A stretch of 54,398 bases of DNA, taken from the NCBI GenBank assembly GCA_037127655.1, contig JBAXXY010000003.1, forward strand, positions 1 to 54,398, written 5' to 3'. The notes under the pieces are model-generated. The model was not told where the DNA came from, searched no databases, and saw only the letters and a program-made list of their open reading frames with translations. The position numbers were made by a program, and so were the translations under genes. This stretch comes from Lentisphaerota bacterium. GTDB lineage: Bacteria > Verrucomicrobiota > Lentisphaeria > Victivallales > GWF2-38-69. Shown here piece after piece: positions 30,101 to 47,537 of this stretch (position 1 is the first letter of the stretch; every line of letters starts with the position of its first letter).

Positions 30101-30367
30101 ACAAGCTATCCTATTAGTGGAGATAATAAAGTCGGCAAAGTCAGATACGAAAACTCCAGAGTTTATATCAATGAAACCCAATACTTTGACAATGTTCCAG
30201 AAGTAGCGTGGAGTTTTTATATCGGCGGTTACCAGCCTGCCCAGAAATGGTTAAAAGACCGCAAAGAAAGGGTATTAAACTTTGATGACATTCTACATTA
30301 CCAGAAAATCATCGTAGCACTAACCGAAACCGCCCGCATAATGAAAGAGATAGATGAAGTTAAATAG
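27179..30367 (+). CDS. Fused restriction endonuclease/N6-adenine methyltransferase (Type IIG-like, with Type ISP-like C-terminal specificity region, no helicase)
   Basis: PDY...YIEAK nuclease, GVYYTP, DPATGTGTF, GNPPY, YRPFD, FPRVP, IGGYQPAQKWLKDRK. Confidence 0.88.
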   Translation: MPINEYIKQVKQSFVTGISTEHSYRPALKNLLDELVKGIIVTNEPKRQKCGAPDYIIQRKQVPIGYIEAKDIGIDLGKTEKSDQMSRYLKSLDNLILTDYLEFRFYRYGQKVKEIKIASIEEGKLKVHPENFSSFETYINDFCSFKGQTIKSAEKLAKMMAQKARMMEEVLFNAVKEVDENNSLKDQLEAFRRVLIHDLDEKTFADIYAQTIAYGLFAARLHDKTLDTFSRQEARELIPRSNPFLRSLFDYVSGAELDDRVVWIVDDLSDIFRATDLKAILSDFGKATEQTDPFIHFYETFLAEYDPKLRKSRGVYYTPEPVVNFIVRAVDDILKSDFNLPLGLADTSKIKIKRTVEGTAITKGKDKGKDVIEEVEVHKVQILDPATGTGTFLAQVVKQIYGKFKGQQGIWSNYVDEHLIPRLNGFEILMASYTICHLKIEMLLRETGYKAVDENKQKRLRVFLTNSLEEAHPDTGTLFASWLSRESTEANYVKKETPVMVILGNPPYSVSSSNKSEWIQNLIADYKKDLNERKINLDDDYIKFIRFGQHFIDKNGEGILALISNNSFIDGITHRQMRKHLLESFDKIYILDLHGNSKKKETAPDGTKDENVFDIQQGVSINIFVKSKNGKMGINHFDLYGKREVKYRYLNDNRLSNIKWSMVKEDNDNCFFTSKDLLTGNSYLKYISLSELLPLNNSGIQTKCDSISINQSIEKLQNTVALFQTEPIEKLKSLFAREESSGWNFAKAKDDLIKNTSFVYAKYNYRPFDFRNIVYTGSSSGFLGRSRSVVMKHFIKRDNIGLCLMRQFFQDAPYSHIYATNSLIDERTMYSNRGGTYLFPLYLYPDEGSFDTSRKPNLNLDIVKQIADKLGMTFTAEKTMEGLASSSPLKVVLTKQNPPASTPIPTFSPIDILDYIYAVLHSPSYREKYKEFLKIDFPRVPYPEDAKTFWKLVKLGGELRQIHLLESPVVENFITSYPISGDNKVGKVRYENSRVYINETQYFDNVPEVAWSFYIGGYQPAQKWLKDRKERVLNFDDILHYQKIIVALTETARIMKEIDEVK
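29817..29875. repeat. Inverted REP doublet (GGAG foot) lying within the R-M coding frame
   Basis: TGGAG-GGACTCG-CTTCGT-CGAGTCC and, inverted, TGGAG-GGTTTTG-CTTCGT-CAAAACC. Confidence 0.75.
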
Positions 30368-34289: not shown

Positions 34290-36542
34290 TTACCAGTAGA
34301 AAGGCTTAAAGTGCTTAACAGGCTCAGTAAAGACCCTGAAATCCATTACTGATAGGACATTGGAATAACCATCTGTCCAGGGCCTTATCTTCCTTATCTG
34401 AAACTTCTTATTCTCCTCTTTCCATTGAAGTTTCTGGACGAGTTTGTCTTTGGAGTTTACATCCCATGTGAGCGCGACCCATTGAGAGGCAAGACTGACG
34501 CGGTCTTTTACTGTTTTATTAGAAGTAAGAACTGCGTAGGCATTTAGCATTTTGGCATTACTGAATAAAATTGGTTCAAGATCAAAATACCTATTGCTTA
34601 CATGGAATAAAATTACTCCTTTCGGCGTCAAGTGCTTCCTATATTCTTTGATTGCCTCGACTGTCAGAAGGTGAATTGGCACAGAATCGCCGCTAAAAGC
34701 ATCAACTATTATAAGGTCATATCTATCTAATGGTATAGTTCTCAAGGAAACACGCGCATCTCCAAAGATGTGGTTGATTTTGGCGGGAGAGTTCTTTAGG
34801 AAAGTAAAATAAGAATCAGCAATATTATATACATCGCGGTCAAGTTCAAAAAAATCCATTTCCTGGCCTTCTTTGCCATAGGCCGCCAGTGTCCCAGTAC
34901 CTAATCCTATTACACCTATAGCTTTTGCATTGAATAAATTGCTATTAAAGAATTTTCCGATCGTAGTATCTTTATGGTAGTACGAGAGGGGTTCATTTGC
35001 TTTTTTCTTGTCTAAGTATTGGACGCCATGAAGCGTCGTGCCGTTGAGCAGAACCAGCATATTCTCTGTTTTATAAAGTCTATAAATGCCGTAAAAATTT
35101 CTTGAGCTATATACACTGTCGCCCTCAGACGGCATCCAGTACTTCAAAGGAAACAACGATATTACTAATACTGTTAATAAGCATGCGCACAGCATCCTGG
35201 CTGCTTTAAGGTTCGCAAAAATCCATCTAAAAATAACAGCAATGATAATAATCCCGAAGACATTGTAATGTTCGAAGTACAGAGGCCATATGACAAGAAG
35301 TAATGCTGTATAGACAATTAAACGGTACTGCAAAAATTTATTCTCAGGGTTCTTTTCCTTCCTTGCCATTGCCAGAGTAACCATAAAAAGCCCGAAAAGA
35401 AATTCTGAAGTATTTACAAAAACTAATGGCGCAAGCCATGTCACGAGCATGCTTCCGACAACTCCTCCAAATGAAATTATGAGGTAAAAAGAAGTTAGTC
35501 TTGACTTCTCTTCCGGCCTTGATGTGAAAAGTTGATACTGGCAATACATGCACAGGACAAACAAAATCAGGCCATAGGCGGCTATTTCAATCAGACGAGG
35601 GAAAATCCTCATTTGTGTTAAAAAGAATAGGAGAATCGCAAATCCAAGATGCAGATTGAGATAATTCTTTATCCAGTCAGGGCAAAAGGCTTTTTCCTTA
35701 AAAGTAAATACAAAAGAAAGCAAATAGATGCATAGAGGCATGATCCAGAGAAGTGGGCACGGCGCAATTTCATAGGTGATGATATTGGTAACTGAAAGAA
35801 ATATTACCGACCCTGCAGCTGATAATAAAAACCAGAATATTCCCTGATATGCCTTATTGCTGAATGCTAGGCGACTGGAAGTAATATTTATTTCAAAAGT
35901 TGAATCGTGGCGAGCTTCAAGGTTTCTATTTATCTTGATTAGAAGGAAAGCCGACAGGTAGAACAATAGGAATACTAGATAAGCTGATCTCCAGATAAAA
36001 AGCTGTTCCCTTAGGTCAAAGAGCCATTCAAAAATAAAAGGATAGGTAATCAAAGCGAGAAATGAGCCGGCATTAGAGACGCTGTATAATACGAATGGGT
36101 TGGTTTGCTGAGGAAGGTCGCTGAAAGAAAGCCAGCTTTGAGTAATGACGCTGATTGTAGATAATGCAAAAAAAACTACTCCGATGCTGATGAATAATTG
36201 AAGGAAGATGTCGAAAACTATAGAAATATTATTATTCGCAATAAATTCTGGCAGAGCTCTTCCGGGAAAAAACAGCAAGGGCAAGGCAATCAATATTAAA
36301 TGCAGATATCTGTATTTGAATAAACCTATATTCTTTACGACAATATGAGAGTAAAAGTAACCCAGGAGCAGGACGCATTGGAAGAAAACTACGCAGGAAC
36401 CCCAGACGAGATAACTACCCCCGAATTTGGGTAGGAATATCTTTGATATTATGAGTTCAATCTGAAAAAGCAGAAATGCCGCCAGAAAGGTAACAAGATA
36501 AAATAGATGAACTCTTTTAAACTCAAAACTAAAAGAAAACAT
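34290..36542 (-). CDS. Fused multi-TM / spermidine synthase-like SAM-binding protein
   Basis: LPKFGGSYLVW TM domain; RNFYG, GTTLHG, IGLGTGTLA, GDAR, VDAFSGDSVPIHLLT, WTD. Confidence 0.88.
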   Translation of the reverse strand: MFSFSFEFKRVHLFYLVTFLAAFLLFQIELIISKIFLPKFGGSYLVWGSCVVFFQCVLLLGYFYSHIVVKNIGLFKYRYLHLILIALPLLFFPGRALPEFIANNNISIVFDIFLQLFISIGVVFFALSTISVITQSWLSFSDLPQQTNPFVLYSVSNAGSFLALITYPFIFEWLFDLREQLFIWRSAYLVFLLFYLSAFLLIKINRNLEARHDSTFEINITSSRLAFSNKAYQGIFWFLLSAAGSVIFLSVTNIITYEIAPCPLLWIMPLCIYLLSFVFTFKEKAFCPDWIKNYLNLHLGFAILLFFLTQMRIFPRLIEIAAYGLILFVLCMYCQYQLFTSRPEEKSRLTSFYLIISFGGVVGSMLVTWLAPLVFVNTSEFLFGLFMVTLAMARKEKNPENKFLQYRLIVYTALLLVIWPLYFEHYNVFGIIIIAVIFRWIFANLKAARMLCACLLTVLVISLFPLKYWMPSEGDSVYSSRNFYGIYRLYKTENMLVLLNGTTLHGVQYLDKKKANEPLSYYHKDTTIGKFFNSNLFNAKAIGVIGLGTGTLAAYGKEGQEMDFFELDRDVYNIADSYFTFLKNSPAKINHIFGDARVSLRTIPLDRYDLIIVDAFSGDSVPIHLLTVEAIKEYRKHLTPKGVILFHVSNRYFDLEPILFSNAKMLNAYAVLTSNKTVKDRVSLASQWVALTWDVNSKDKLVQKLQWKEENKKFQIRKIRPWTDGYSNVLSVMDFRVFTEPVKHFKPFYW

Positions 36543-36619: not shown

Positions 36620-37321
36620 TTAGTTCAGCGTTTTGGCGCAATCGTACCAAGTCGGGAAATACTGAGTCTGAGTGCCGCTGGCGTTAACAGCCGACCAGCC
36701 TTTGCCTTTTGTAAATGAAATTCTAGTGTCTCCTCCGCCTTGAGTTTTTACTATTACGAAAATAATGCCTTTGGAATCCTGTAATGGTCCTTTGACCAGT
36801 TTATATGTCGGCCTTTTGTCGTCTTCTTTATCTTTCTTCGGATTAGTTATATCAGAAGTTGTTTTGGCAAGATGAGATATTTGTTGTTTTGAAAATGATT
36901 CATTTTTATCTTTGAGTTTGGCTTCCGTTTTCTGCTTTAAATCCAATGTCATTTTATAGAAATCGCCGATATTGTAATCGGAAATTTTGCCTTGTTTTGC
37001 ACCGGAAGACAAAGCGCGTTGGCACCAGATAAGAGTTTGCCTGTCATCACCTTTTGAAGCTGATTTAGATGCCTCATTATAGCATGAAAGAGTAATGAGT
37101 TCCTGAGCTTTTTCTCTCCATTTCTGGGAGTTGGACGAACTGAGTTTATTGGCAAGAGATAACATTTCAGAAGAATAGAGATAAACTTCTGCGGTGCTCT
37201 TTGGTGAAGCGTTGAAGGCATCAACAATTTTACTATCCAGTTCGTCAAAACTCGATGACTCGCCAAAAAGCGAAAGCGAGGCGCAGATTAAAAGTGCGGT
37301 GAGAACTTTACGGTACGACAT
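36620..37321 (-). CDS. Exported hypothetical protein (last gene of fibre locus)
   Basis: Signal peptide; helical N-region and small beta C-domain; overlaps upstream gene by 14 nt. Confidence 0.7.
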   Translation of the reverse strand: MSYRKVLTALLICASLSLFGESSSFDELDSKIVDAFNASPKSTAEVYLYSSEMLSLANKLSSSNSQKWREKAQELITLSCYNEASKSASKGDDRQTLIWCQRALSSGAKQGKISDYNIGDFYKMTLDLKQKTEAKLKDKNESFSKQQISHLAKTTSDITNPKKDKEDDKRPTYKLVKGPLQDSKGIIFVIVKTQGGGDTRISFTKGKGWSAVNASGTQTQYFPTWYDCAKTLN

Positions 37322-38135
37322 CGATATTGCCTATAATTGGCTCGGCTTTATTGATTTGCTTGCTTTCAGGCTGTTCAGCTGGCTGAGGTTTTCCTTCAAT
37401 TCTCTGAGCAGCTTGACCTTCGGCTTCGAGATATTCTCTATCGAAGTCAACTACTTTTTCTCCTAGCATATCTGATAGGTCTTTCATATTAATGCGAAGT
37501 TTCACTACAGCTATTGCGTCATCGCCTTCGCCTTCCCAGCTGAAACCCATAAATTCAGCGCCCATCAAAGCTCCAATAACGGAGGTTTTGACCTGGTCAG
37601 ACTTAAGCATAAAATTCTCTACGCTCGTATGGCTTTCTAGTGTGAACCCGCCTATTTTTTTATAAAGATTCTTGTAGGCGTCAATTTCTGCTGCTCTCAG
37701 AGCAGCTATTTTTGGAGCATTAGCCGGAGTCGAAGTAGCAAATGCAGTTCTATGAATGACTTTGTCGGGGTATTTCTCGAGATTGAATTTAGCGCTGTCA
37801 ACAAGGTCAGCTATTCTCGATAGTTTTAGAGATGCAGTAACCATCGCTATATCTTTATCCGGGTCATACTTAATTTCATCAAATTCTATTCCGACAATTT
37901 TTCTCTTTCCTGTTTTAGTTTCTGTTGTACCCTGGAAAGTGCCGTCTATGAAATTATCCACCTGTTCATTGTACTTGAGTTTGATGCCGTAAACAGTTTC
38001 TACAATATTTCGTTCAGCCAAAATCTTTGCCGAATTGATTGAATTAAGCTTCTTTCTGGGATCAACTTTAGAGGCTGAAAACATTATTGCGGGGATGATG
38101 GCAAGCGCCACAGCGAACAAAAGTTTGGTTTTCAT
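37308..38135 (-). CDS. Exported protein with two LPP20/FlgP-like domains
   Basis: SAKILAERNIVETVYGIKL and ALRAAEIDAYKNLYKKIGGFTLESHTSVENFMLKSDQVKTSVIGALMGA. Confidence 0.7.
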   Translation of the reverse strand: MKTKLLFAVALAIIPAIMFSASKVDPRKKLNSINSAKILAERNIVETVYGIKLKYNEQVDNFIDGTFQGTTETKTGKRKIVGIEFDEIKYDPDKDIAMVTASLKLSRIADLVDSAKFNLEKYPDKVIHRTAFATSTPANAPKIAALRAAEIDAYKNLYKKIGGFTLESHTSVENFMLKSDQVKTSVIGALMGAEFMGFSWEGEGDDAIAVVKLRINMKDLSDMLGEKVVDFDREYLEAEGQAAQRIEGKPQPAEQPESKQINKAEPIIGNIDVVP

Positions 38136-38557
38136 AGGCTATTTTTATCCTGTAAATTGTTTGAGTTTATATTTTTTGGTTCAGGAGGCAGGACGCTGTC
38201 AATATCAATTTTGAATTTGGTGTCAATTGTCTTAATTACTTTTCCCTGAAGATAGATTATATCATTATTTTTATTGGAAGGCGATGGCTCATACCATCTA
38301 TCTGAATCGTCTATTGGCGAACTTGATACTTCTTTGAGCAGCAGTTCAAACGAGTTGTTGTCTTTTTCAATAAGCCTGGCTTTTACATAGACGCTCTGGT
38401 TATTATAGTTTTCGAGTATTTTGGAGTTTTCCAGAACGGCGTCGTTGAGTTCTTTGAGCTCTTTAACTCTCTGCGAAATAAGATCTTTACTGGCATCGGA
38501 AGCCATTGAAGTAACACAGAGTATTGAAGCAATCAGAAATGTGAGTAAGAGTTTCAT
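38132..38557 (-). CDS. Small exported hypothetical protein
   Basis: Signal peptide (SMA cleavage); ATGA overlap with next gene. Confidence 0.7.
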   Translation of the reverse strand: MKLLLTFLIASILCVTSMASDASKDLISQRVKELKELNDAVLENSKILENYNNQSVYVKARLIEKDNNSFELLLKEVSSSPIDDSDRWYEPSPSNKNNDIIYLQGKVIKTIDTKFKIDIDSVLPPEPKNINSNNLQDKNSL

Positions 38558-38562
38558 TTAAT

Positions 38563-38596
38563 AAGAAAACCCTGAGACCGGTTTACTCGGTCTCAG
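38563..38596 (-). terminator. Terminator/stabilising hairpin after the duplicated repeat genes
   Basis: CTGAGACCG-7 nt-CGGTCTCAG followed on the minus strand by GGUUUUCUUAUU. Confidence 0.7.
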
Positions 38597-38608
38597 AGTG
38601 AATTGTGA

Positions 38609-39295
38609 TTAATAACCTAAGTTGATACCGGAATTGGCTTCAGATTCACCCTTGGCTGTGTTGTCTACGCCAGTATTTGTGTTTGTGATAGTAGAGTTTT
38701 TTATCTGGGCATTATTTGCGCTTATGCCGGAGATAACTACTGATTTGCCTTCGGCTATGTTAGTACCGTCAGTATTAGTGTTAGAAATTTCAGATCCACC
38801 TTCGACCGTTGCTTTATTCAAAGATATACCTGAAACAATTAGGGATTCATCTTTTGCATAGTTTTCAACGCCGGTGTTTTCATTGTAAATAGTTGAATCC
38901 TTGATTGTAGATTCATTAGCTTCGATGCCTGATACGATCTTTGACTTATTTGTAGCTTCGTTAACACCATCTTTATTAATATTTGTTATTACGCTTCCGT
39001 CTGTTACTTGAGCCTTGTTAAGCGATATGCCTGATACGATTAGAGACTCATCTTTGGCAGTGTTCTCCATATTCGAATTGGTGTTGTAAATTTCTGAATC
39101 TTTTATTGTCGCGCCGACTGCTTCGATACCAGAATTGATCTTAGATTTGTTTGTAGCTTCGTTAGTAACATCCGTGTTGGTGTTTTCAATGGTCGAGTTT
39201 TCAACTGTGGTGACAGGCGGCAACGCAAACATAGTCGAGGCGGCTAAGGTTGTAGCTAATGCGATTGTGATAAGTTTAGTTTTCATAACACTCAT
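38609..39295 (-). CDS. Secreted 6x 33/34-aa beta-solenoid repeat protein (putative major fibre subunit A2)
   Basis: Signal peptide MFA|LPP, then only repeats SxIxNxNxxxxNxAxxxSxIxSGI; ends NSGINLGY. Confidence 0.8.
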   Translation of the reverse strand: MSVMKTKLITIALATTLAASTMFALPPVTTVENSTIENTNTDVTNEATNKSKINSGIEAVGATIKDSEIYNTNSNMENTAKDESLIVSGISLNKAQVTDGSVITNINKDGVNEATNKSKIVSGIEANESTIKDSTIYNENTGVENYAKDESLIVSGISLNKATVEGGSEISNTNTDGTNIAEGKSVVISGISANNAQIKNSTITNTNTGVDNTAKGESEANSGINLGY

Positions 39296-39320
39296 TCTCC
39301 TTTTAATTATTTGGTTGGGT

Positions 39321-39995
39321 TTAATATCCTAAATTGATGCCTGAATTAATTTCAGATCCGTCTTTTGCAATATTGGTTACACCGGTATTTGTATTTGTGA
39401 TAGTGGAATTCTTTATCTGAGCATTATTGGCGCTTATACCGGAGATAATTACAGATTTATTGGAAGCCTCATTATAAACATCCTTGTTGGTGTTGCTGAT
39501 CGTGGAACCATCTGAAACTTTAGCATTATTTAACGAAATACCTGAAACTATGAGAGATTCATCTTTTGCATAGTTCTCAACGCCGGTATTTTCGTTGGTA
39601 ATAGTGGAATTCTTTATCTCTGCCCCATTAGCTTCAATACCTGAAACTATCTTTGATTTATTTATAGCTTCATTAGTAACATCTCGATTGATGTTTTCAA
39701 TATAACTCCCATCGGTAACCTGAGCTTTGTTAAGAGAAATACCCGATACTATCAAAGACTCATCTTTGGCTGTGTTGGTTACATTTTCATTTGTATTGTA
39801 GATTTCCGAATCTTTTATGGTTGCGCCGACTGCTTCGATACCAGAATTAATTTTAGATTTGTTTGTAGCTTCGTTAGTAACATCTGTGTTGGTGTTTTCA
39901 ATAGTCGAGTTTTCAACTGTGGTGACAGGTAACGCAAACATGGTTGAGGTGGCTAAGGTTGTAGCCAATGTGATTGTGATAAGTTTAGTTTTCAT
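39321..39995 (-). CDS. Secreted 6x 33/34-aa beta-solenoid repeat protein (putative major fibre subunit A1)
   Basis: Close paralogue of 38609..39295 with the same repeats and termini. Confidence 0.8.
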   Translation of the reverse strand: MKTKLITITLATTLATSTMFALPVTTVENSTIENTNTDVTNEATNKSKINSGIEAVGATIKDSEIYNTNENVTNTAKDESLIVSGISLNKAQVTDGSYIENINRDVTNEAINKSKIVSGIEANGAEIKNSTITNENTGVENYAKDESLIVSGISLNNAKVSDGSTISNTNKDVYNEASNKSVIISGISANNAQIKNSTITNTNTGVTNIAKDGSEINSGINLGY

Positions 39996-39999
39996 AATA

Positions 40000-40665
40000 T
40001 TATTCTCCTATATTTATGCCTGTATTGGCTTTGGAATCATCCTTGGTTATTATACTGCTGTTTCCTCCTGCATTGGTAAAGTTGGAGTTCTTTACTGCAG
40101 AATTGGAGATTTTAATACCCGTATTTACCTTTGACTTATTATCGGCCAGAGATTGGGTTTTTCCCACACTACTGGACAATTTTGATTCTTTAATTGTGGA
40201 GCCTTGAGAAACTAGCCCGCTGTTTATTTCTGAGTTGTTTTGAGCTGTATTTGTCACCTTGTCATTGGAATTGTCCAGTTTTGAGGTTTTAATCTCAGAA
40301 TCCTTTATGCTTACGCCTGAAACAATATCTGAGTTGGCATCGGCTTTATTTACTACATCAGTGTTGGCATTGGTTATCTTTGAAGACGCTACTGATGAAT
40401 TCTCAATTTCTATCCCTGTATTGATTTTTGAATTTCCAAGCGCTTCCGAAGAAACATCAGAGTTTGCATTTTTTATTTCTGAAGACTTTACATCTATGTC
40501 ACCTATGGCATTAACGCCGGTATTCACATCCGAAGTATCACTGCTTATCACACTAATATTGTCGGTCTGATTTTCGATGGTTGTAACATCCACGCTGGTT
40601 TCAGGCAAAGCCCAAAGTTGCGCGCCTATAAAAAGCATAAAAGATAATAAAAGAAAACTCTTCAT
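40000..40665 (-). CDS. Secreted 6x ~33-aa repeat protein (divergent minor subunit)
   Basis: Signal LWA|LP; repeats ending (N/V)(T/S)G(I/V/L); ends NTGINIGE; strong AGGAGGAGG RBS. Confidence 0.78.
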   Translation of the reverse strand: MKSFLLLSFMLFIGAQLWALPETSVDVTTIENQTDNISVISSDTSDVNTGVNAIGDIDVKSSEIKNANSDVSSEALGNSKINTGIEIENSSVASSKITNANTDVVNKADANSDIVSGVSIKDSEIKTSKLDNSNDKVTNTAQNNSEINSGLVSQGSTIKESKLSSSVGKTQSLADNKSKVNTGIKISNSAVKNSNFTNAGGNSSIITKDDSKANTGINIGE

Positions 40666-40733
40666 AAGCTTAAACCTCCTCCTTGTCTTTTAGTATTTTA
40701 TATAAGAATTTTTAAAAAAACAATAGGGTTAAA

Positions 40734-42977
40734 TCACTTTCCGAAATTGAACTGTAGGTCTGGCGCCGGTTGTTCATTGTCATCTTTATTGAATTTTGTG
40801 CCCTGATTGACTGTTGACCTGTTTTTAACTGTTGTATTAGCGCCTTGAACCGTATTTGAGATGGTTGCATTAGTAAGTTTCGTGTTATTAGCTTGGACTC
40901 CTGCATTAAGAGTAGAGTTGTCACGGGCAGAAAAAGTGCCTTCGACTTCAGATGTGATATTAGAATCCTTAATTTCAGAATTGTTAGCCGAGAGCCCGGT
41001 ATTTATAGTGGAGTTATTTACTGCTTCGACTTTTCCTTCAGTTCTTGTCGAGATGAAGGATCTCTGTACTGTTGACTGATTTATGCTTACGCCCGTATTA
41101 ATTTTTGAATTTTCTTTGGCAATAGCTTCTACATCTCCTGTGTTTTCTATGTAGGAATCTTCCACTTTGGCATTTACAGCGCTTATGCCGGTATTGATTT
41201 TGGATTTGCCGGTTGCTTCTGAAGAACCTTCGACTGTATTTATGATAGTGCTGTTTTCTATGGTGGTAATAACTCCTCCAGTAGAAGGCGCAAATATTCC
41301 TGTAAACATTCTTCCGCCCTTATCGTAGTTCTCCATGAGTTTTTTCAGCCCTTCTTCGGGAGTCATGCCGTTTGCGAGCTTATGTCCTTTGGCTATAGCG
41401 TCCAGGTACATCTGAATTAGAGCCTTCTTGGCCTGTTCGTCATACTGCCCACTCTTGTAGATATTGGCTTCAATCCATTCCGGAGTGAGTCGGTTAGAGA
41501 CTTCCTTGGCCAGGAAATATGTAATAAGAACGACACCAATTACCGTGCCTGCAACAGGATTAGCTACAAAGATTGCAGTCAATCCATATTGAAGAATTTT
41601 CCCGAAAACAAATGTGTATGCCAGGCTTTTCATTCCTTCATAATAATTGCCTGTTCTATAAGTTTCCGTTACCACATCATAGATCTGAAGCGCCATCAAT
41701 ATTCCGCCGCCCCAGCCTAAACCTCTTTGTATTCTATTTATACTTGGTCCCTTAGAAATCGAATTGTATTTTTGTTCAGACATTTTGAATTTCTCACGGA
41801 TATATCTGTCGGGGGTTCCGAGTTTTAATTTTAGATTTTCTTCGCCGCCAGCCAAATTGCTGAGCTTATCCCATACGCCGAATCTCATCTTCTGTTCATA
41901 GACTGAAACTGTATCTTTCATCTTTGAAAATTTAGAAGCCTGCCCAGTCATATTTTTAAAATCCTTTTCCAGCTGATTCAAAAGGTTCTTTGATTCCATG
42001 CCGACTTTTTCTGCCTGAGCGGCGGTACCCTGTCCCCTTTCAACAGCTTCAGAAACATATTCGGGCAATTTGGTTTTCTGACCAACGCCGTATCTTCCCT
42101 GTGTCAGGTTGTGCACATTCTCTGCTCTGCCCAGGTACTTAGCAGTCAGGTGATTAACTTCCTGTAACTGATTGGTGAGTTTTTCAAGAAGTTCTGCATT
42201 TGGGTGGCCGGGGGGGAAGTTTCCAGTCTTAAGCTGGTTAATCTTTGAGGTTAATTGATCTGCGATTTCGATATTAATTTTTACTTGTGATTTCATTTCA
42301 TTGTGGTAGGCGACAGCCTCATTGAAAGTCATCAGGTTATCCCTTCCAAGTCTTATATATGCTTCAACCCTGGCTGCATCAGGGGATCTATAGGCTCTGC
42401 CGCCGCTTTTATTGATATCTTCTACTACTGGAGCGAAATCCGGGGAGTTCGGAGAAACCATAAAATCAGTTTTGGTGGTTTTAGTCCAATTAGTGCCTTT
42501 TGCCACCGGGACTCCATTTTCAGCGTATAGCTGATCCATTCCTTTGCTGAAATTAGCGGTCTGAGTTTTATAGTCATGGAATGTGGCGGGCTTGCCACCG
42601 GGGCGTTCAATAAATATGTCGTTATCTGCCCATAATTTTTGTTTATAGCTTGTTGATTGTGAAACCTGTTTGGAAACATTCAATCCTGATTGTTCTGCAG
42701 CCCACTTAAATCGTTCCTCAAGTATTTGCTGGGAACTGCTCTGAACTCTCTGAAACGCCTCGTCTGTTATATGCCCGCCATTTCTCAAATTGCTCATTTC
42801 GTCATAGGAAGATAGAAGTTGTAATCTTACCTGCATTAGAGCCTTTGGCGGCAATTTTTCTGAGTAATTTGCAAAATAGTTTGCAAGATCTACAAGACTT
42901 TTATCATACCCTAAGAGTATTACAGGAAGGATTATAGATAGGATAAACGGTGTCAGGTATTTTAGAAATTTTCTCAT
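40734..42977 (-). CDS. Secreted effector-like protein with hydrophobic hairpin and 5 C-terminal fibre repeats
   Basis: Signal peptide; helical N-region; hydrophobic GLGWGGGILMAL...AIFVANPVAGTVIGVVLITYFL; then TTIENSTIINT...SKINTGI repeats. Confidence 0.72.
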   Translation of the reverse strand: MRKFLKYLTPFILSIILPVILLGYDKSLVDLANYFANYSEKLPPKALMQVRLQLLSSYDEMSNLRNGGHITDEAFQRVQSSSQQILEERFKWAAEQSGLNVSKQVSQSTSYKQKLWADNDIFIERPGGKPATFHDYKTQTANFSKGMDQLYAENGVPVAKGTNWTKTTKTDFMVSPNSPDFAPVVEDINKSGGRAYRSPDAARVEAYIRLGRDNLMTFNEAVAYHNEMKSQVKINIEIADQLTSKINQLKTGNFPPGHPNAELLEKLTNQLQEVNHLTAKYLGRAENVHNLTQGRYGVGQKTKLPEYVSEAVERGQGTAAQAEKVGMESKNLLNQLEKDFKNMTGQASKFSKMKDTVSVYEQKMRFGVWDKLSNLAGGEENLKLKLGTPDRYIREKFKMSEQKYNSISKGPSINRIQRGLGWGGGILMALQIYDVVTETYRTGNYYEGMKSLAYTFVFGKILQYGLTAIFVANPVAGTVIGVVLITYFLAKEVSNRLTPEWIEANIYKSGQYDEQAKKALIQMYLDAIAKGHKLANGMTPEEGLKKLMENYDKGGRMFTGIFAPSTGGVITTIENSTIINTVEGSSEATGKSKINTGISAVNAKVEDSYIENTGDVEAIAKENSKINTGVSINQSTVQRSFISTRTEGKVEAVNNSTINTGLSANNSEIKDSNITSEVEGTFSARDNSTLNAGVQANNTKLTNATISNTVQGANTTVKNRSTVNQGTKFNKDDNEQPAPDLQFNFGK

Positions 42978-45900
42978 AACTGCCTGCTATTGACTCCTAG
43001 AACCAGATTAGTATTTTTTTCATTGAGTCTTGTGAGCGGCATCTCTTCCATAAAGGACAACTTATTGGAGGAGTCAAGGGCGATATTACCCGGTTTTTGG
43101 GACTGGGGACCGAAAAGTCTCATTGATTTAAGAAGCACAGGTCCGCCTTCTGAAAAAATAATATTTCCTTTATCGAAACCAATCATTCCGCCATAGAAAG
43201 TATCCACATTGAGATCATCTTGAGTTTTTAAGATTCCAAGGCTGTTAAAACTCCTTGAAGATAGCAGTTTGCCTTTATTGTCCGTGAGGTCAGTTATACT
43301 TCCGAAAACATCACATAGAACATACTGGGGTTTGCCGTTTGGTCTTATGATAGCTAGACAGGTATCAGAGTTTGGGAGATAGATATATCTTGTGAAGCAT
43401 TTGGATTCAGAGTCCCAAGTGGCATATAGATTATCGTAAAGGAAATAATACTTTTTCTGTTTGCTGTCTGCGTCAGCCGTATATATCTGATCTTCGAGTG
43501 GAGCATAGGCGATTGAAAGTTTGGAGTTGGGGCCGAAAGAGATTTCGCTGACTCGGTTATCCCAATCGTAGGAGAGTTCTGTTTTTTTTTCTTTTTCAGA
43601 GAATGATTCGATGGCAGAAGTCTGAGTATAGGCTAGTGCTACTGAGTTAATTTCGGAAAGCAGAGCGGGGGATACTCCTTTGGACTTATTGTTGCCAAGT
43701 TGCATAAGATTTCCCCAGATGTCGAATTTTAAATTGACAGACTTCCCATTCGAATCAGATATTTTCTCGAGATGCCCTAGCGCATCATAGGAGTAGTTAA
43801 CCACAGATCCGTTTGTGTTGATTTCGATGAGATTTCCGACTTTATCGTACTTTAACTTTGAATCTCTTTTGGAGCCGTCAGGGAAGTTTATAATATATTC
43901 TGTTATTCTGTCAATGATGTCATAGTTCCATGTTATTATAATTCCGTTAGGATAAGAGATATTTTTAATCATTCCTGAATCGTAATAGGTGATTTTAAAG
44001 ATGCCCGAATTATCCGAAGAGATTGATGTAATTTTTCCTCCAGTATTTTTACCATATTTTAATGCGAATCCAGACGAGTCTGAGATCTCCTTCGGCATAT
44101 CAATCTGATCATAATTTAGATGAATGGAAAGTTCTTTATTGTAATTCTTCGCCGAGAGCCTGCCGTAATCGTCGTATTCAAAAACCATTCTACAACTGTC
44201 TGTCTGAGCATCTGTTATCTGGAAATGTTTATTAAAAGAGTAAGAAGAGAGTATCTTGTTATTCTTATCTTTAATTGCAAGCGGTTTATGGTTGCTGTCG
44301 AAATAGTAGTTGGTAATAGTTGAGTCAGGGCTTATTCTTGCTATACTCAAATCTTTATTATTAAGAAACAACCAGACCCCAAAAAGACTACTACTGAAAG
44401 AGGAGATGTCATTTTCTTTGGATTGTATATACGACTGATTATCAAATCCGCATAGTTCTACGCTACGGCGAGCCGGCAAACCTTGGTAATCAAATATGGT
44501 TTTTTTCCCGAGAGGGTCAAGTACTTCAGTCGGGAGATTATATTCATCAGTTTTAATACTGGAAGAAGCTCCGTCAGGATAAATGATTTCCAAGCCATCT
44601 TTCATATATCTGTAGCTTGTTGTATTTCCAAGTGAATTGACCGATTTAATTATTCTTCCCTGAGTGTCGTATGTGAAGAGGGTTTCGTTTCCTGAAGCAG
44701 TTGTTGTTTTTTCTAGGAGTGTCCCGTCAAGAGAGTATTGATTTTTTAGGATCTGAATACCGTTATAAATTATTCCTATAATGTTTTTATTGGAATCCCT
44801 TATTATTCCGTTATTTTTGATTTCGGCTACTCTATTGTCATTTGCAAGATCAGAAACTGAAATGATGTCTTTGAAGTATTCGATACCATTTTTGTTCTTT
44901 AGAACTATGTTTCCAAAATCAACATTCATTTGATAAGGGGTGAAGCCCACTAATGAAGCATTTACAGTGAAACTTGCATCTTTGCCAGGTACGATTTCCA
45001 TAGTGTCCCCAGTGATGCTATGTGATTTTCTAATACCTGTTTTTCTGTCAATAGTACCGAAAAGAACTTTGTCGGAGTCAATGGGGCCTTCTTTGATTTC
45101 AACTTTATCTTTTGTATATTTGTATTGAGTTTCAGTGGCTTGCGTAATGTTCCATACATAGACATATGAAGTGTCAGGTTCTTTTTTTGTATCGGAAGAA
45201 TATTCGACATAGATAGTATCGCCTCTAGCGTCATCAATACTTAAAATTTTCCCGTTTTCGTAGTATGAAAGAGCATAATCATGATCTGGTTCTTTTAGTC
45301 TTGAAAGAAGTCCCAAGTCATTGTATTCTAAAAGGTATGAAGTGTTGCCATTTATAAGTATTGATGAAAGGATTGAATCAGTGTAGGAGAATTTGTATTC
45401 TCTATTTGCTTTTATTGCTGAGATTTGCTCTGACAGGTTCCAATCGACTTTAGCATCCTCATTTGAATTTGAATTTGAACCTCCAGTAAGAGAGTTGTCG
45501 ATAGAGAAGGTTTTAACTCTGTCTGATTTAGTTCCCCATCCGGAAATGAGTTTTTGGGGATTGCGTATCATGACTGATACTGAACCTGATTCGTCCTGGA
45601 TTGTTTTGAGGTTTCCTTTATCGTCGAAGGTAAGTTTTTCCCCGATATTGGAGGTGAGCGTGTAGTCGCCATTTATGAATTCAAATTTAGCGCCCAGTCC
45701 TCCTCCTGATTCAAATTTGCCGTCTTCATTCTTGATGAATAAAATCTTGGAGCAGTAAGCGCTGATTGTAAATATTGGCACTTCGTCAGAAAGTTGGAGG
45801 TTTGCGTCTAGCGAAGTTTCCCATTTAGCGCCGACAGAGCCTTTGGATATCTCTGGATTGTATTTAAAGGATAGGGGATACCCCGAGATGTTGAATATTG

Positions 45901-46030
45901 AAAACTGCGCATCAATAGTTCCTGTGGCAGTATTAATCTCGATAGACGCGGGCAGAGACAATGAGAAACTAAAGAGGAGCGCCGATGTCAGCGCTACGAG
46001 TATAAAAAATTTCTTCATTTCTTTATTCAA
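42974..46030 (-). CDS. Sec-exported Rhs/YD-repeat protein with degenerate core and no C-terminal toxin
   Basis: Signal peptide; YDTQGR, YDDYGRL, YDKVGNL, YDALGHL, YDWDNR; core remnant DVFGSITDLTDNKG; ends at PLTRLNEKN. Confidence 0.82.
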   Translation of the reverse strand: MNKEMKKFFILVALTSALLFSFSLSLPASIEINTATGTIDAQFSIFNISGYPLSFKYNPEISKGSVGAKWETSLDANLQLSDEVPIFTISAYCSKILFIKNEDGKFESGGGLGAKFEFINGDYTLTSNIGEKLTFDDKGNLKTIQDESGSVSVMIRNPQKLISGWGTKSDRVKTFSIDNSLTGGSNSNSNEDAKVDWNLSEQISAIKANREYKFSYTDSILSSILINGNTSYLLEYNDLGLLSRLKEPDHDYALSYYENGKILSIDDARGDTIYVEYSSDTKKEPDTSYVYVWNITQATETQYKYTKDKVEIKEGPIDSDKVLFGTIDRKTGIRKSHSITGDTMEIVPGKDASFTVNASLVGFTPYQMNVDFGNIVLKNKNGIEYFKDIISVSDLANDNRVAEIKNNGIIRDSNKNIIGIIYNGIQILKNQYSLDGTLLEKTTTASGNETLFTYDTQGRIIKSVNSLGNTTSYRYMKDGLEIIYPDGASSSIKTDEYNLPTEVLDPLGKKTIFDYQGLPARRSVELCGFDNQSYIQSKENDISSFSSSLFGVWLFLNNKDLSIARISPDSTITNYYFDSNHKPLAIKDKNNKILSSYSFNKHFQITDAQTDSCRMVFEYDDYGRLSAKNYNKELSIHLNYDQIDMPKEISDSSGFALKYGKNTGGKITSISSDNSGIFKITYYDSGMIKNISYPNGIIITWNYDIIDRITEYIINFPDGSKRDSKLKYDKVGNLIEINTNGSVVNYSYDALGHLEKISDSNGKSVNLKFDIWGNLMQLGNNKSKGVSPALLSEINSVALAYTQTSAIESFSEKEKKTELSYDWDNRVSEISFGPNSKLSIAYAPLEDQIYTADADSKQKKYYFLYDNLYATWDSESKCFTRYIYLPNSDTCLAIIRPNGKPQYVLCDVFGSITDLTDNKGKLLSSRSFNSLGILKTQDDLNVDTFYGGMIGFDKGNIIFSEGGPVLLKSMRLFGPQSQKPGNIALDSSNKLSFMEEMPLTRLNEKNTNLVLGVNSRQL

Positions 46031-46160: not shown

Positions 46161-47504
46161 TTACCAGTCTGTTTCTCCGAAACCTACAGGCGCTTCTTTT
46201 GAGTTAACAGGAGGCTGTTTAGTCTGCTGTTTTGCAGGCTGCTGTTGAGCTTGTTGAGCGATCGGAGGTGGCGGCGGAGCCTGTCTTGTCTGCGCTTGTT
46301 GCTGAGAAGGAGCAGGAGCGCTTTGAACTTGTTGTTGAGGAGCAGGAGCTTTTTGTACTGCTTGCTGTGGCTGTTGTTTAGCAGGTTGAGGTATAGCATT
46401 TAACTGAGGAACTGGTCTATTCTTATAGTCCAGATTGCGTTTTCTGGATTCATCAATAGGGACAGTTTCCCATAGATTGAGGAAGAGGTCGGTATAGTTC
46501 GAAGTTCCGGTCTTTTTCATAGCTTCATTGATCATATCTACATCGCTCTGATTGATTGGAGCTGTCTTATCAATGTTGTAACCATGGAAGAACATGTACT
46601 CTCTAAGGTATGTTATTTTTTCATTATTGCCAAGATAGCTGAACTCTTCTCTAAGTCTTGCCAAAAGGGCTTTGTCTTCGGTGGCGCCAGGAATACATCT
46701 CCAGTAAGGAACATCGAAATACTTACCGAGGGTTTCAAGCGTGCTTATTTCGACAAGCAGTCTGATGCCGTAGTAGATGCCCTGTTGCTTCTTCAGAGTG
46801 TAATCGAATGTCAGACCACAACCTTCAAAGAATGCACCGATACCCCATCCAAGTTTGGTTTTTCTGATGTTGATAGAGTTTGATACCTGGGAACTTGCAA
46901 TTGCAGATTGTGTTTTATAGTCCAGTAAACTAAGGTCGAAAGACATACGGGAAACTGATTCTTCTGCATTGTATCCCATGCTTCCATCGTATTGGGAGCT
47001 CGACCCCCACTGACCTTTCTCGACTCCGCCTTCAGCCTTGAGTTCTCTGGCCTTTTCAATCAGATCTTTATCAAACTCTGTAATTCCGCCAGTCATTACG
47101 AGTTGGGGCAATGCCCTATTTATAGAACCGCCAGTAGTGGCTTCATTTATGATGTAGTTAGGATCGTATGGTAAATAGATAACTCTTGTGCCGATTTTAT
47201 TAATTGCAGTGGCAAGCATTTTTGACACATCGTCGGGGAGTGTTTTGTCGGCGGTATCGTTAGTTATTACCTTGCTCTGTACTTTGACCGGGTTTATATC
47301 GTAGGCTTCAAGGAGTTTCCCAAACTGCCTGAGAGAATCATCATATCGGGTTAATTGTGCCTGAGCCTGGCTCATAGACGCATCCAGATCCTTTACTTCT
47401 TCATCACTTACATCTCCAGCGAACCAACGGAAGATACTGCATCCTGAACCGAGCAGTAATATGCTTGCTATTGAAGACAAATAAAATAATTTCCTTAATT
47501 TCAT
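46161..47504 (-). CDS. CsgG/HfaB-like outer-membrane lipoprotein with Pro/Gln-rich tail
   Basis: Lipobox GSGC; MTGGITEFDKD, SFDLSLLDYKT, IRLLVEISTLETLGKYFDVPYWRC; start 47504 behind GGAGG. Confidence 0.7.
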   Translation of the reverse strand: MKLRKLFYLSSIASILLLGSGCSIFRWFAGDVSDEEVKDLDASMSQAQAQLTRYDDSLRQFGKLLEAYDINPVKVQSKVITNDTADKTLPDDVSKMLATAINKIGTRVIYLPYDPNYIINEATTGGSINRALPQLVMTGGITEFDKDLIEKARELKAEGGVEKGQWGSSSQYDGSMGYNAEESVSRMSFDLSLLDYKTQSAIASSQVSNSINIRKTKLGWGIGAFFEGCGLTFDYTLKKQQGIYYGIRLLVEISTLETLGKYFDVPYWRCIPGATEDKALLARLREEFSYLGNNEKITYLREYMFFHGYNIDKTAPINQSDVDMINEAMKKTGTSNYTDLFLNLWETVPIDESRKRNLDYKNRPVPQLNAIPQPAKQQPQQAVQKAPAPQQQVQSAPAPSQQQAQTRQAPPPPPIAQQAQQQPAKQQTKQPPVNSKEAPVGFGETDW

Positions 47505-47537
47505 GAAACCTCCGAACTTATTTATAACCATAAATTG

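Follow-up and report, generated by a model that had tools for sequence, protein, structure and literature searches.

What is built by two neighbouring genes whose products consist of a signal peptide and six short repeats, and by which route would such products leave the cell? This question is raised by the window analysed here, i.e., the whole stretch of 54,398 nt from a Lentisphaerota bacterium (Victivallales; GWF2-38-69; assembly GCA_037127655.1, contig JBAXXY010000003.1). All sequencing runs containing the stretch carry a lake water or freshwater habitat label. The two genes, A and B, lie in an 11-gene operon on the minus strand (49997-36620), which further encodes a third paralogue (C), two more repeat-bearing proteins, two paralogous lipoproteins with a predicted CsgG fold and a FlgP/LPP20-like protein. 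On balance, we lean towards A, B and C being subunits of an extracellular β-solenoid fibre exported by a CsgG-type lipoprotein channel, which would make the locus a new curli-like secretion-assembly system with a 33-residue rung. The features are as follows, in the order of transcription for the operon.

49134-49997, minus strand: secreted protein of 287 aa, the operon's first gene; N-terminal part of degenerate repeats from the same family as in A and B, followed by Gly-rich and charged parts at the C-terminus
47538-49133, minus strand: lipoprotein 1 with a predicted CsgG fold, 531 aa; C-terminal TPR-like extension; paralogue of 46161-47531
46161-47531, minus strand: lipoprotein 2 with a predicted CsgG fold (AF2, Foldseek and hhalign), 456 aa; lipobox Cys; Q/P-rich tail
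42974-46030, minus strand: RHS/YD-repeat protein of 1018 aa; signal peptide; 4-nt overlap with the next gene
40734-42977, minus strand: membrane protein of 747 aa; hydrophobic segments 3-29 and 465-493; five C-terminal 32-aa repeats of the same family
40000-40665, minus strand: repeat protein C, a more distant paralogue of A (35-38% identity); six repeats of 33 aa
39321-39995, minus strand: repeat protein B, 224 aa; paralogue of A, 85% identical
38609-39295, minus strand: repeat protein A, 228 aa; signal peptide and six 33/34-aa repeats; predicted fibre subunit
38569-38599, minus strand: terminator-like hairpin, 10 nt past the stop codon of A (consensus scan only)
38132-38557, minus strand: small secreted protein of 141 aa, always immediately downstream of the repeat genes
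37308-38135, minus strand: secreted protein of 275 aa; C-terminal half FlgP/LPP20-like
36620-37321, minus strand: 233-aa protein with a possible lipobox, the module's last gene
50494-52380, plus strand: 628-aa protein with a CsgG/FlgO/LpoB-like N-terminal domain and an FGE-sulfatase domain (Pfam)

The first-pass annotation of this DNA dealt with A and B; the three other repeat-bearing proteins (C, the C-terminus of the 747-aa protein and 49134-49997) and the two lipoproteins with the CsgG-like fold came in addition to it.

In both A and B, the signal peptide ends in FALP. The repeats begin 2-4 residues past it and continue, as six units of 33/34 aa, up to the very last residue (...NSGINLGY). 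The true start of A may be the ATG at 39286 (residue 4), as the alignment with B and the ESM Atlas record both begin there. A contains no Cys, no Trp and only two Pro, both at the end of the signal peptide, along with 2 Gln, 31 Asn, 26 Ser and 30 Thr; B similarly has no Cys or Trp, one Pro and two Gln. Thus, the earlier description of A and B as six uncapped repeats is borne out. The periodicity is above chance, the best self-identity at lags of 20-44 being 0.256 (A), 0.280 (B) and 0.317 (C), against maxima of 0.199, 0.191 and 0.234 in 1000 shuffles. At a lag of 67, the self-identity rises to 0.52 in A and 0.59 in B, as compared with 0.24-0.25 at lag 33, and the alternation of odd and even repeats, which had also been pointed out in the first reading, reflects this 67-aa double repeat. 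That reading had further singled out an alternating column of charged residues that would continue from one subunit onto the next. The residue preceding the conserved Ser indeed runs K,E,K,E,K,E in A and K,E,K,E,K,G in B; however, the column is not a conserved design feature. In the alignment of homologues, it occurs only in A, B and their two orthologues in a sister genome; C, P0001 and all the rest lack it. Being confined to the A/B lineage and a trivial result of the double repeat, it is not a feature of the family.

The family itself is rare, with 59 cluster representatives among 1.84 billion. The repeats of 46 family ORFs, taken from 26 loci, are spaced by 32-34 aa in 255 of 290 intervals, their number per ORF varies from about 5 to 11, and 36 ORFs are without Cys. 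The 287-aa protein is linked to the family by an hhalign value of 99.2% over 126 columns and a match at 1.1e-10. For the repeat proteins, the Pfam and NCBIfam scans of all operon proteins returned only sub-threshold noise. Endo_dU (0.049) and LIC_10177_fam (E 0.0012, 18.7 bits against a cut-off of 100) were rejected on this ground, as were the GlgC and SmQnr matches of C. Membership in the pentapeptide-repeat proteins was also rejected, the match of C being sub-threshold (NCBIfam E 0.016, 15 bits against 460), the TM at most 0.21 and the period 33. The profiles of the repeat, 141-aa and 233-aa families, when run against the PDB sequences, matched nothing below E 0.08. Literature searches on Lentisphaerae amyloids and curli and on type VIII secretion in Victivallales matched only unrelated papers, and among the papers listed for CsgG homologues none dealt with this system by title or abstract; no description of the repeat family was found in these searches. 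A and B probably build a kind of extracellular fibre that is new to the literature.

The AF2 model of mature A (202 residues, from a 21-row alignment) has a pLDDT of 97.8 and a pTM of 0.93. It is all-beta, with only β-strands from residue 4 to 195, and the predicted solenoid carries no capping element; the monomer model proposed as a check on the first reading has, therefore, come out as a confident cap-less solenoid. The trimer proposed along with it gave the predicted head-to-tail stack. In the three-copy model, the ipSAE was 0.90/0.91/0.90 while the best of three controls reached 0.00, the runs share at least 96% of their contacts, and the pLDDT of the partner does not fall below 94. The predicted contacts join residues 167-202 of each copy to residues 1-36 of the following one. 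The contact offset of 167 equals five repeats, so that the last repeat would sit on the first one in register, with one repeat per rung. When the stacking score was calibrated on solved proteins, 20 of 30 same-chain pairs reached the mark, as did 1 of 23 single chains. These counts hold only roughly here; the calibration used two copies and the tool's own alignments. Moreover, the predictor extends a cap-less tandem repeat from end to end almost by construction, and the three-copy score is thus weak as independent evidence. The proposal of polymerisation is partly supported: every in-silico test proposed with the first reading went its way, while the fibre and its amyloid character remain a prediction.

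A second reading of the same solenoid is that the repeat proteins are exported by the same machinery and act at the surface as monomers or short stacks, e.g., as an adhesin, a coat or a matrix-binding solenoid, with C, the 287-aa and the 747-aa paralogues terminating or capping the stacks before a long fibre can form. We consider it unlikely. β-solenoids are mostly non-polymerising scaffolds, as the discussion in PMC10192328 puts it, and several different repeat-bearing proteins are encoded here side by side. The nearest ESM Atlas clusters point in the same direction at the level of leads: the feature matches of A are all below 0.9 and labelled ‘Adhesin’ or ‘hypothetical’, and the structure matches, at TM 0.41-0.61, are pentapeptide, BigA or autotransporter solenoids. 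The end repeats of the family are also barely more conserved than the inner ones (R1 0.44 and R6 0.48 against 0.37-0.46 for the others), a trend too weak to be used as a signature of the interface. What speaks for polymerisation instead is that the chains begin and end exactly at the repeat boundaries, 45 of the 46 family members ending at most 8 residues past the last S/T/A-G motif, and that the model of A pairs an uncapped end with the homotypic interface described above.

A further possibility is that a solenoid so rich in Thr, Asn and Ser serves a lake bacterium by binding ice, mineral or polysaccharide on its flat faces. The composition, the regularity of the predicted fold and the lake water or freshwater label of all runs are in line with it. 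However, the predicted outward positions of A's longest strand read T,E,T,T / E,Y,T,S / V,T,I,K and so on, which does not look like a regular Thr array, no ice-binding family was matched in Pfam or NCBIfam, and the repeat family co-occurs with a dedicated multi-gene export module. An ice-binding or otherwise surface-active role is, therefore, highly improbable. A structural relative of A cannot be named from Foldseek, which returned only generic solenoids with a TM of at most 0.21 in the PDB and at most 0.36 in BFVD, at an rmsd of 9-23 Å. These sole matches, the pentapeptide-repeat and right-handed β-helix proteins, share with A the generic solenoid, but their period is 5 x 4 or about 22 rather than 33, and they are either capped and mostly cytoplasmic or domains of larger proteins.

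The fibre reading needs an exit, and the two lipoproteins are the candidates for it. Their lipobox Cys follows a hydrophobic stretch, is preceded by Ser or Gly (S-C or G-C) and does not vary among the 14 aligned sequences. The AF2 model of 46161-47531 has a pLDDT of 62 overall and of 81-96 in its core blocks. Its top Foldseek match in the PDB was the curli channel protein CsgG (4uv2, E 2.3e-6 to 2.1e-5, probability 1.0, TM by target 0.42-0.48), with further CsgG chains (6l7c, 6l7a and 4uv3) also matched; FlgT and PelC followed at 1.4e-3 and 3e-3. A CsgG fold is thus predicted from the model. Against a 28-row alignment of the CsgG family, hhalign gave 79.6% (E 1.5e-5, 218 columns) where eight controls gave 0.3-16.5%, a match that is suggestive, not decisive; E. 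coli CsgG alone gave 3.6%. The alignment was built from Pfam-positive ORFs, the word-based search with E. coli CsgG having listed only sequences at least 83% identical to it. Pfam CsgG (PF03783) matches neither lipoprotein even at E = 10, and its scan of the genome hit three other places. Likewise, no CsgG chain was matched when the profile of the lipoprotein pair was run against the PDB sequences; in 47538-49133, TPR matches fall at profile positions 384-516. The candidate barrel hairpins of 46161-47531 (155-192 and 225-248) have a pLDDT below 50 in the monomer model.

A CsgG-like fold is also found in proteins that are not channels, namely FlgT, PelC and HpaA, all of which are among the Foldseek matches. 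A rival reading is that the lipoproteins and the FlgP/LPP20-like protein form a ring scaffold in the periplasm or outer membrane, like the FlgO/FlgP/FlgT discs of some flagellar motors, with the repeat proteins being periplasmic or structural parts of the envelope. The neighbourhood gives some reason for it. The profile of the 275-aa protein weakly matches FlgP-type lipoproteins in the PDB (E 7.7e-4 to 0.023, positions 106-223), the alignment with them covering the second half of the protein at 7.7e-4 to 8.7e-3. The 628-aa neighbour (50494-52380) matches the FlgO and CsgG N-domains in Pfam, and a 399-aa gene of related loci has FlgT_N and LPP20 matches below the Pfam cut-offs, so that the neighbouring genes encode both FlgO-like and FlgT_N-like domains; the fold matches of the lipoprotein 46161-47531 include FlgT and the LPHT ring. 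Among these matches, CsgG nevertheless leads, its E-value being about three orders of magnitude lower than the next. Flagellin was not found in the module-carrying genome G000 (92% complete), nor in four of five other module-carrying genomes, including the single-contig G001. Cap-less repeats free of Cys would, in addition, be typical of proteins that fold only after export. We regard the ring scaffold as improbable. The 275-aa protein has no Pfam match, LPP20 being absent even at E <= 10. In 9 of 10 orthologues a conserved Cys lies after the signal peptide and not in a lipobox, and the copy in the window has Ser there.

For the channel reading, the remaining small genes would be accessory factors. 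The 275-aa protein is the module's most conserved gene product, with 60-88% identity among orthologues. No family was found for the 141-aa and 233-aa proteins with Pfam, NCBIfam and the PDB-sequence profiles, and the ESM Atlas gave the former only OB-fold-like rows at TM < 0.4, which are leads only. When CsgE, CsgF and CsgC were aligned with the 141-, 233- and 275-aa families, hhalign values were at most 0.5%, with low power as the targets were single E. coli sequences, and no Pfam matches for them were seen. The 628-aa gene is divergent in the window; in related loci, it adjoins the module and is co-directional. Its orthologue in L017 was confirmed by a domain scan, and L018, L022 and L023 have ORFs of 622-644 aa at its place, matched by size and position alone.

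The 275-aa gene served as the anchor for following the module through 26 loci. Of these, 25 have the 141-aa gene and 24 a repeat gene, the remainder being cut by contig ends. The pair of predicted CsgG-fold genes is found in 17 loci, and in all three pair-less loci whose upstream DNA exceeds 7 kb it lies elsewhere in the genome; the 287-aa and 233-aa genes are present in 15 and 16 of the 26, respectively. Among 60 relatives, 16 genomes carry the repeat family, 16 the pair and 17 the 275-aa protein; the same 15 genomes have all three together, and 42 have none of them. Across Victivallales MAGs, the module is thus conserved and its parts occur together.

The same comparison bears on the RHS gene, which lies inside the operon next to the repeat-tailed membrane protein and raises the thought of an RHS-linked system for toxin/immunity or contact-dependent competition, of which the repeat proteins would be part. 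The protein (42974-46030) is a clear member by Pfam RHS_repeat (1.4e-25) and the NCBIfam YD repeat. However, it has neither the DPxG[LWMIV] motif nor a recognised toxin domain, and the RHS and 747-aa genes are present in only three of ten compared loci (L016, L019 and L020, the only ones with 747-aa orthologues), the rest of the module being conserved without them. A toxin/immunity or competition system is, therefore, highly improbable.

Curli consist of the CsgA and CsgB subunits and the CsgG, CsgE and CsgF secretion-assembly machinery, also known as type VIII secretion. Like those subunits, A and B are small, Sec-dependent, free of Cys and made of imperfect repeats only, with Asn/Ser ladders pointing inward; subunit paralogues stand side by side, the repeat number varies while the repeat length is constant, and the genes are encoded together with lipoproteins of predicted CsgG fold. 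The models, in which A comes out as a secreted, Cys-free and cap-less stacking subunit, extend the likeness. CsgA fibres are described in PMC10192328 as cap-less solenoids stacked head to tail, and non-polymerising solenoids as having imperfect or blocked ends; a cap-less β-solenoid with head-to-tail stacking is also what is predicted for A. The curlin repeat, according to PMC10192328, has about 23 aa with the kernel N-x-Psi-x-Psi-x-Q-X-G-X-X occurring twice.

The differences are, however, considerable. The rung here has 33-34 aa and about five short strands as against the strand-arc-strand of curlin with its about 23 aa, and the repeats are almost free of Gln and lack the N-x-Psi-x-Psi-x-Q kernel. 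Curlin_rpt (PF07012) matches none of A, B and C at E <= 0.1 and nothing in the whole genome at E <= 1, and hhalign of the repeat family gave 0.7% against E. coli CsgA and 0.8% against CsgB; the first-pass view that the repeat is distinct from curlin has thus held. A and B also lack a segment like the 22-residue disordered N-terminus that CsgA uses for targeting. The two candidate channel proteins are paralogues of each other, carry long extensions at the C-terminus and are missed by Pfam CsgG. Counterparts of CsgE, CsgF and CsgC were not detected in the low-power hhalign, and the accessory genes are instead one FlgP/LPP20-like and two of no recognised family. The host belongs to the PVC group, while the hosts of curli are Proteobacteria or Bacteroidota.

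To our knowledge, curli, Fap and the Hfa anchor are among the few Gram-negative systems that export unfolded repeat proteins for assembly outside the cell. No Fap family came up in the Pfam and NCBIfam scans of the operon proteins. In the Caulobacter holdfast anchor, the CsgG-like HfaB brings the amyloid- or adhesin-like HfaA and HfaD to the surface outside a curli operon, as stated in PMC6707917, and this is a precedent for a CsgG-like outer-membrane protein that surfaces amyloid-like proteins. The module differs from it in having no holdfast polysaccharide genes, and the searches showed no sequence link between the two, the HfaD-annotated cluster being only at rank 22 of the ESM Atlas feature matches with a score of 0.76, below the level of a lead.

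Taken in the order of events, the favoured fibre model would run as follows. A, B and C would be made with a Sec signal peptide and, having no Cys and no folded cap, be kept unfolded in the periplasm. Export would take place via an outer-membrane channel formed by both lipoproteins (47538-49133 and 46161-47531). Outside the cell, the chains would fold into the solenoid, one 33-residue repeat per rung, and the open last rung would dock in register on the open first rung of the next subunit, continuing the Asn/Ser ladders. The 287-aa product of the first gene and, where present, the 747-aa protein may serve as nucleators, anchors or cargo displayed on the fibre, and the 141-aa, 275-aa and 233-aa proteins as periplasmic or outer-membrane factors. 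Here, the build of the repeats, the conservation and co-occurrence of the module and the RNA-library contigs over A, B and C are observed; the solenoid, the interface of A and the CsgG fold are predicted from models, while the export route, the polymerisation outside the cell and the roles of the accessory genes are what we infer.

A bolder form of this model can be put forward tentatively, although we hold it rather doubtful. The locus would then represent an unrecognised class of functional-amyloid-like fibre, so far limited to the Victivallales (PVC), with a five-strand, Gln-free rung of 33 residues unrelated to curlin or Fap and a heteromeric channel of two highly diverged CsgG paralogues. 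Such a system would be modular; any protein with terminal repeats, such as the 287-aa and 747-aa proteins or the 350-aa P0003-type proteins with membrane-like N-domains, could plug in as nucleator, anchor or cargo by solenoid stacking.

If true, the solution of a ‘CsgG-type channel plus cap-less solenoid’ would have a longer history, or have been arrived at anew more often, than thought. Studies of how amyloid-like polymerisation is encoded and restrained would also gain a second self-stacking rung of different geometry. Fibre scaffolds and CsgG-type pores have already found use in engineered living materials and in nanopore sensing, and the locus would add a new scaffold and diverged pores as parts.

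Contigs from two metatranscriptome libraries of one study (X13 and X14) cover 38541-40678, i.e., A, B and C, and 23 of the 25 contig pieces are at least 99% identical to the stretch. This cover is not by itself proof of transcription. As the contigs come from lake water, the product may matter for the formation of aggregates or biofilms by uncultured freshwater bacteria. Such cover is missing, or nearly so, over the genes for the RHS and 747-aa proteins, over most of the lipoprotein genes and over a 750-aa gene downstream; its absence proves nothing, and its depth cannot rank genes. In a DNA run of the same sample, all 30 bins were covered; the unevenness in the RNA libraries is unlike that expected of a uniform carry-over of DNA. 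A promoter scan was uninformative (35 sites against 36.4 expected). Terminator-like hairpins directly after a gene are common behind genes for major subunits. The one behind A (38569-38599) has a 12-bp stem with seven G-C pairs, followed by a T-rich run, and this is the longest stem, with the most G-C pairs, among the 19 sites listed in the consensus scan.

The two open reading frames that the first-pass annotation had described as cap-less six-repeat proteins, here called A and B, are present as claimed:

38609-39295, minus strand: repeat protein A, ORF of 228 aa
39321-39995, minus strand: repeat protein B, ORF of 224 aa

Both begin with a hydrophobic N-terminal signal ending in FALP, after which six repeats of 33 or 34 residues run up to the C-terminal ...NSGINLGY, with nothing else in the chain. 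A contains 0 Cys, 0 Trp, 2 Pro (both at the end of the signal peptide), 2 Gln, 31 Asn, 26 Ser and 30 Thr, and B is alike; the reported lack of Cys, Trp and Pro within the repeats, along with the scarcity of Gln, thus holds for A. The periodicity is beyond chance, as the best self-identity at lags of 20-44 residues (0.256 in A and 0.280 in B) exceeds the highest of 1000 shuffles (0.199 and 0.191). The alternation of odd and even repeats corresponds to a double repeat of 67 residues, the self-identity being 0.52-0.59 at lag 67 against 0.24-0.25 at lag 33. Immediately ahead of the conserved Ser, the six repeats of A carry K,E,K,E,K,E in turn, and those of B K,E,K,E,K,G.

Three more proteins of the same strand and cluster bear this type of repeat:

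40000-40665, minus strand: repeat protein C, six 33-aa repeats, 35-38% identity to A
40734-42977, minus strand: 747-aa membrane protein, its last 160 residues being five 32-aa repeats
49134-49997, minus strand: 287-aa protein with degenerate repeats in its N-terminal half

The 287-aa protein is matched to the repeat family by hhalign (99.2%) and by the genome scan (1.1e-10). Beyond these cluster genes, no copy of the repeat was found in the genome of the window (3.18 Mb, 92% complete). The signal peptides of A, B, C and the 287-aa protein share a conserved A-[LV]-P directly ahead of repeat 1; in the family alignment A3, Ala24 and Pro26 are invariant in 10/10 sequences, a Pro that near the signal-peptidase site being unusual.

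The repeats define a genuine family, though a rare one. In 5.8 billion proteins, a word-based search yielded 3 relatives, and among 1,835,955,588 cluster representatives an exhaustive profile search gave 59 with E <= 1e-3, of which 28 reach <= 1e-10 and 5 reach <= 1e-30. The 26 related loci all come from MAGs, and their taxon labels are only Victivallales, Victivallaceae, Victivallis, Lentisphaera, Lentisphaeria, Lentisphaerae and Lentisphaerota. In the 46 repeat-family ORFs of these loci, 255 of the 290 intervals between successive S/T-G anchors measure 32-34 residues, the repeat count varies from about 5 to 11, the chain ends within eight residues of the last anchor in 45, and 36 are free of Cys. 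These counts extend the repeats-only, cap-less design, with its constant period and variable repeat number, from A and B to the whole family. The K/E alternation is not a family property and is common only to A, B and two sister-genome orthologues. One relative of 350 aa (P0003) also joins a membrane-like N-domain to the repeats.

AlphaFold2 modelled mature A (21-row alignment; pLDDT 97.8, pTM 0.93) as beta-strands only, some five to each repeat, lying within residues 4-195 of 202. The model has neither helix nor terminal cap, in agreement with the proposed cap-less solenoid. Foldseek returned no close structure for it; the best matches were pentapeptide-repeat and other beta-helix proteins with TM <= 0.21 in the PDB and <= 0.36 among the BFVD viral models (rmsd 9-23 Å). 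For the ESM Atlas' own model of A (pTM 0.80), the nearest entries are solenoid clusters with TM 0.41-0.61. That such solenoids serve to bind ice or some other surface appears very improbable.

Three copies of A were predicted to form a complex with scores of 0.90, 0.91 and 0.90; with unrelated proteins in place of the partner, the highest score of three controls was 0.00. In calibration, 20 of 30 proteins with a solved same-chain pair and 1 of 23 with a solved single chain attained the mark, counts that are only a rough guide here. At least 96% of the contacts are common between runs, and the partner pLDDT is at least 94. The modelled interface lies between residues 167-202 of one copy and 1-36 of the next. 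The contact offset of 167 residues (e.g. 194:27, 195:28, 192:25) places the last repeat of a chain in register on repeat 1 of its neighbour, one repeat being one rung. Across the rungs (198:10/12 and 186:27), the I-x-N-x-N strand faces the S-G-I strand and the N-x-A strand faces the x-I-N strand. In such a stack, the K and E residues of the column in A would go on alternating without a break from one subunit to the next. The copies thus stack end to end in the model, as had been anticipated, although such an extension of a cap-less repeat is what a predictor would be expected to give anyway. A surface solenoid that does not polymerise is considered unlikely. Taken as a whole, the earlier interpretation is largely supported in silico as regards the fold, the stacking and the non-curlin repeat; the weight it placed on the K/E column is not.

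As judged from their sequences, the repeat proteins are not members of the curlin family. Their repeat of 33-34 residues is longer than that of curlin (about 23), is almost free of Gln, and lacks the curlin kernel N-x-Psi-x-Psi-x-Q described in PMC10192328. Curlin showed no sequence or profile match to the family, and the genome of the window yielded no curlin repeat; the first-pass annotation was right to set the two apart. No published description of the repeat family was found in the main texts of the literature searched.

A and B lie within eleven co-directional genes separated by -14 to 130 nt, in the order 287-aa repeat-related protein, 531-aa lipoprotein, 456-aa lipoprotein, RHS/YD protein, 747-aa membrane protein, C, B, A, and the 141-, 275- and 233-aa proteins. 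Pfam and NCBIfam scans of the eleven proteins gave a family for the RHS protein only. The 531- and 456-aa lipoproteins are paralogous, and their lipobox Cys is invariant. For the AlphaFold2 model of the 456-aa protein (pLDDT 62; core blocks 81-96), the best PDB fold match is CsgG (4uv2 chains: E 2.3e-6 to 2.1e-5, probability 1.0, TM by target 0.42-0.48), followed by FlgT (1.4e-3) and PelC (3e-3). Against a 28-row CsgG alignment (E. coli, three enterobacterial sequences and 24 Pfam-positive ORFs of the same phylum), hhalign gave the pair 79.6% with E 1.5e-5 over 218 collinear columns; eight control comparisons gave 0.3-16.5%. The Pfam CsgG model matched neither lipoprotein even at E = 10, the profile of the pair found no CsgG among PDB sequences, and hhalign against E. 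coli CsgG alone gave 3.6%; the pair is, therefore, not filed under Pfam CsgG. Both are termed CsgG-fold lipoproteins here and are probably very distant relatives of CsgG. Two further Pfam CsgG matches in the same genome (contig C281:194-2113; E 7.5e-8 and 4.2e-3, partial model coverage) have no positional relation to the operon.

Two genes, one inside the operon and one beside it, bear on other readings of the locus:

42974-46030, minus strand: RHS/YD-repeat protein of 1018 aa, upstream of the 747-aa gene with a 4-nt overlap
50494-52380, plus strand: 628-aa protein with a CsgG/FlgO/LpoB-like N-domain (Pfam CsgG 7.2e-8) and an FGE-sulfatase domain

An RHS-linked competition system is a far-fetched reading. 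The RHS and 747-aa genes are an insertion seen in only 3 of 10 compared loci (L016, L019, L020), and the DPxG[LWMIV] motif is absent from the RHS protein. The 747-aa protein has a hydrophobic N-terminal segment and a glycine-rich hydrophobic block at residues 465-493. The 628-aa gene is divergent from the operon in the window; its orthologue in L017, where the domains were scanned, adjoins the module co-directionally, and ORFs of 622-644 aa, matched by size and place alone, occur in L018, L022 and L023. As the repeat proteins are without Cys, a formylglycine target is not obvious. The 275-aa protein, the best-conserved gene of the module (60-88% identity), weakly matches FlgP-type lipoproteins in its second half (E 7.7e-4 to 8.7e-3). 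An envelope ring scaffold might be built from such parts. However, flagellin was not found in the genome of the window or in 4/5 other module-carrying genomes, one single-contig genome included, which makes a flagellar-disc role of the FlgP-like and FlgO-like parts unlikely, and the scaffold is held to be improbable.

The module, i.e. the repeat genes, the CsgG-fold pair and the 141-, 275-, 233- and 287-aa genes, was compared across 26 loci, with the 275-aa gene as anchor. Of these, 25 have the 141-aa gene and 24 have one or more repeat genes, the other two loci being cut by contig ends; the pair is found in 17, the 233-aa gene in 16 and the 287-aa gene in 15. The pair is missing from nine loci: in six the sequence upstream is too short, and for the other three it lies elsewhere in the same genome. 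In 60 relatives of the same order, which are not independent samples, the repeat family (mostly in tandem copies) and the pair occur in 16 genomes each and the 275-aa protein in 17. All three parts are in the same 15 genomes and none in 42; each of the remaining three has an incomplete or weak set. When 200 other genomes were sampled evenly over the phylum, the repeat family turned up in 2, both of the window's own family. Within the order, the distribution of the module is patchy, spanning four or more families, and its parts go together. In eight loci (L039, L040, L043, L045-L048, L051), the 233-aa gene is followed by one more repeat gene (e.g. L040:11551-12291), coding for 225-247 aa with a Pro-rich N-terminal part, five repeats and the end ...NSG[IV][ND][LF]K or ...NSGINLN; it resembles the relative P0002. 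In L019, L020, L021 and L024, a conserved four-gene set replaces the 233-aa gene (e.g. L020:12219-14798), encoding proteins of ~399 aa (weak FlgT_N/LPP20, below Pfam cut-offs), 121 aa (weak DUF6567), 119 aa and 190 aa. In L018, a gene for a DUF2807 (GIN-domain) protein also lies downstream, and a fusion of an MFS protein with a LuxR/GerE-type domain is encoded upstream.

On balance, we lean towards a curli-like secretion and assembly system. The subunit would be exported by Sec and, unfolded and free of Cys, would then pass through a CsgG-type lipoprotein channel. Outside the cell, it would fold, and the solenoids would stack head to tail. The repeat-bearing 287- and 747-aa proteins may act as nucleator, anchor or cargo, and the 141-, 275- and 233-aa proteins as accessory factors. 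In this scheme, the repeat anatomy, the conservation and co-occurrence of the module and its cover by RNA-library contigs are observed; the solenoid, the subunit interface and the CsgG fold come from models, and the export route, the polymerisation and the accessory roles are inferences. The likeness to curli, and to the HfaB-dependent Hfa anchor of Caulobacter as described in PMC6707917, would lie in this mode of working. With hhalign, no counterpart of CsgE, CsgF or CsgC was detected when the 141-, 233- and 275-aa families were compared with single E. coli sequences.

Twelve sequencing runs, labelled lake water or freshwater, contain half or more of the words sampled from 36620-42000; seven of them give no independent support, since they may be the source of the window's DNA. 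Metatranscriptome contigs from two libraries of one study span 38541-40678, that is A, B and C, and the 141- and 275-aa genes are covered in part; 23 of 25 pieces are at least 99% identical. These contigs, which cannot give transcript levels, hint at in situ transcription of the repeat genes. The stop codon of A is followed, at a distance of 10 nt, by a terminator-like hairpin whose stem measures 12 bp. Directly downstream of the module, 34290-36542 on the same minus strand encodes a multi-pass membrane protein of 750 aa whose C-terminal domain resembles spermidine synthase (NCBIfam fused MFS/spermidine synthase, 3.5e-14), an adjacency not conserved in other genomes. Further along, 27179-30367 on the plus strand encodes a 1062-aa Type ISP restriction-modification enzyme with Type_ISP_C (8.5e-78), N6_Mtase, Eco57I and MmeI methylase domains.
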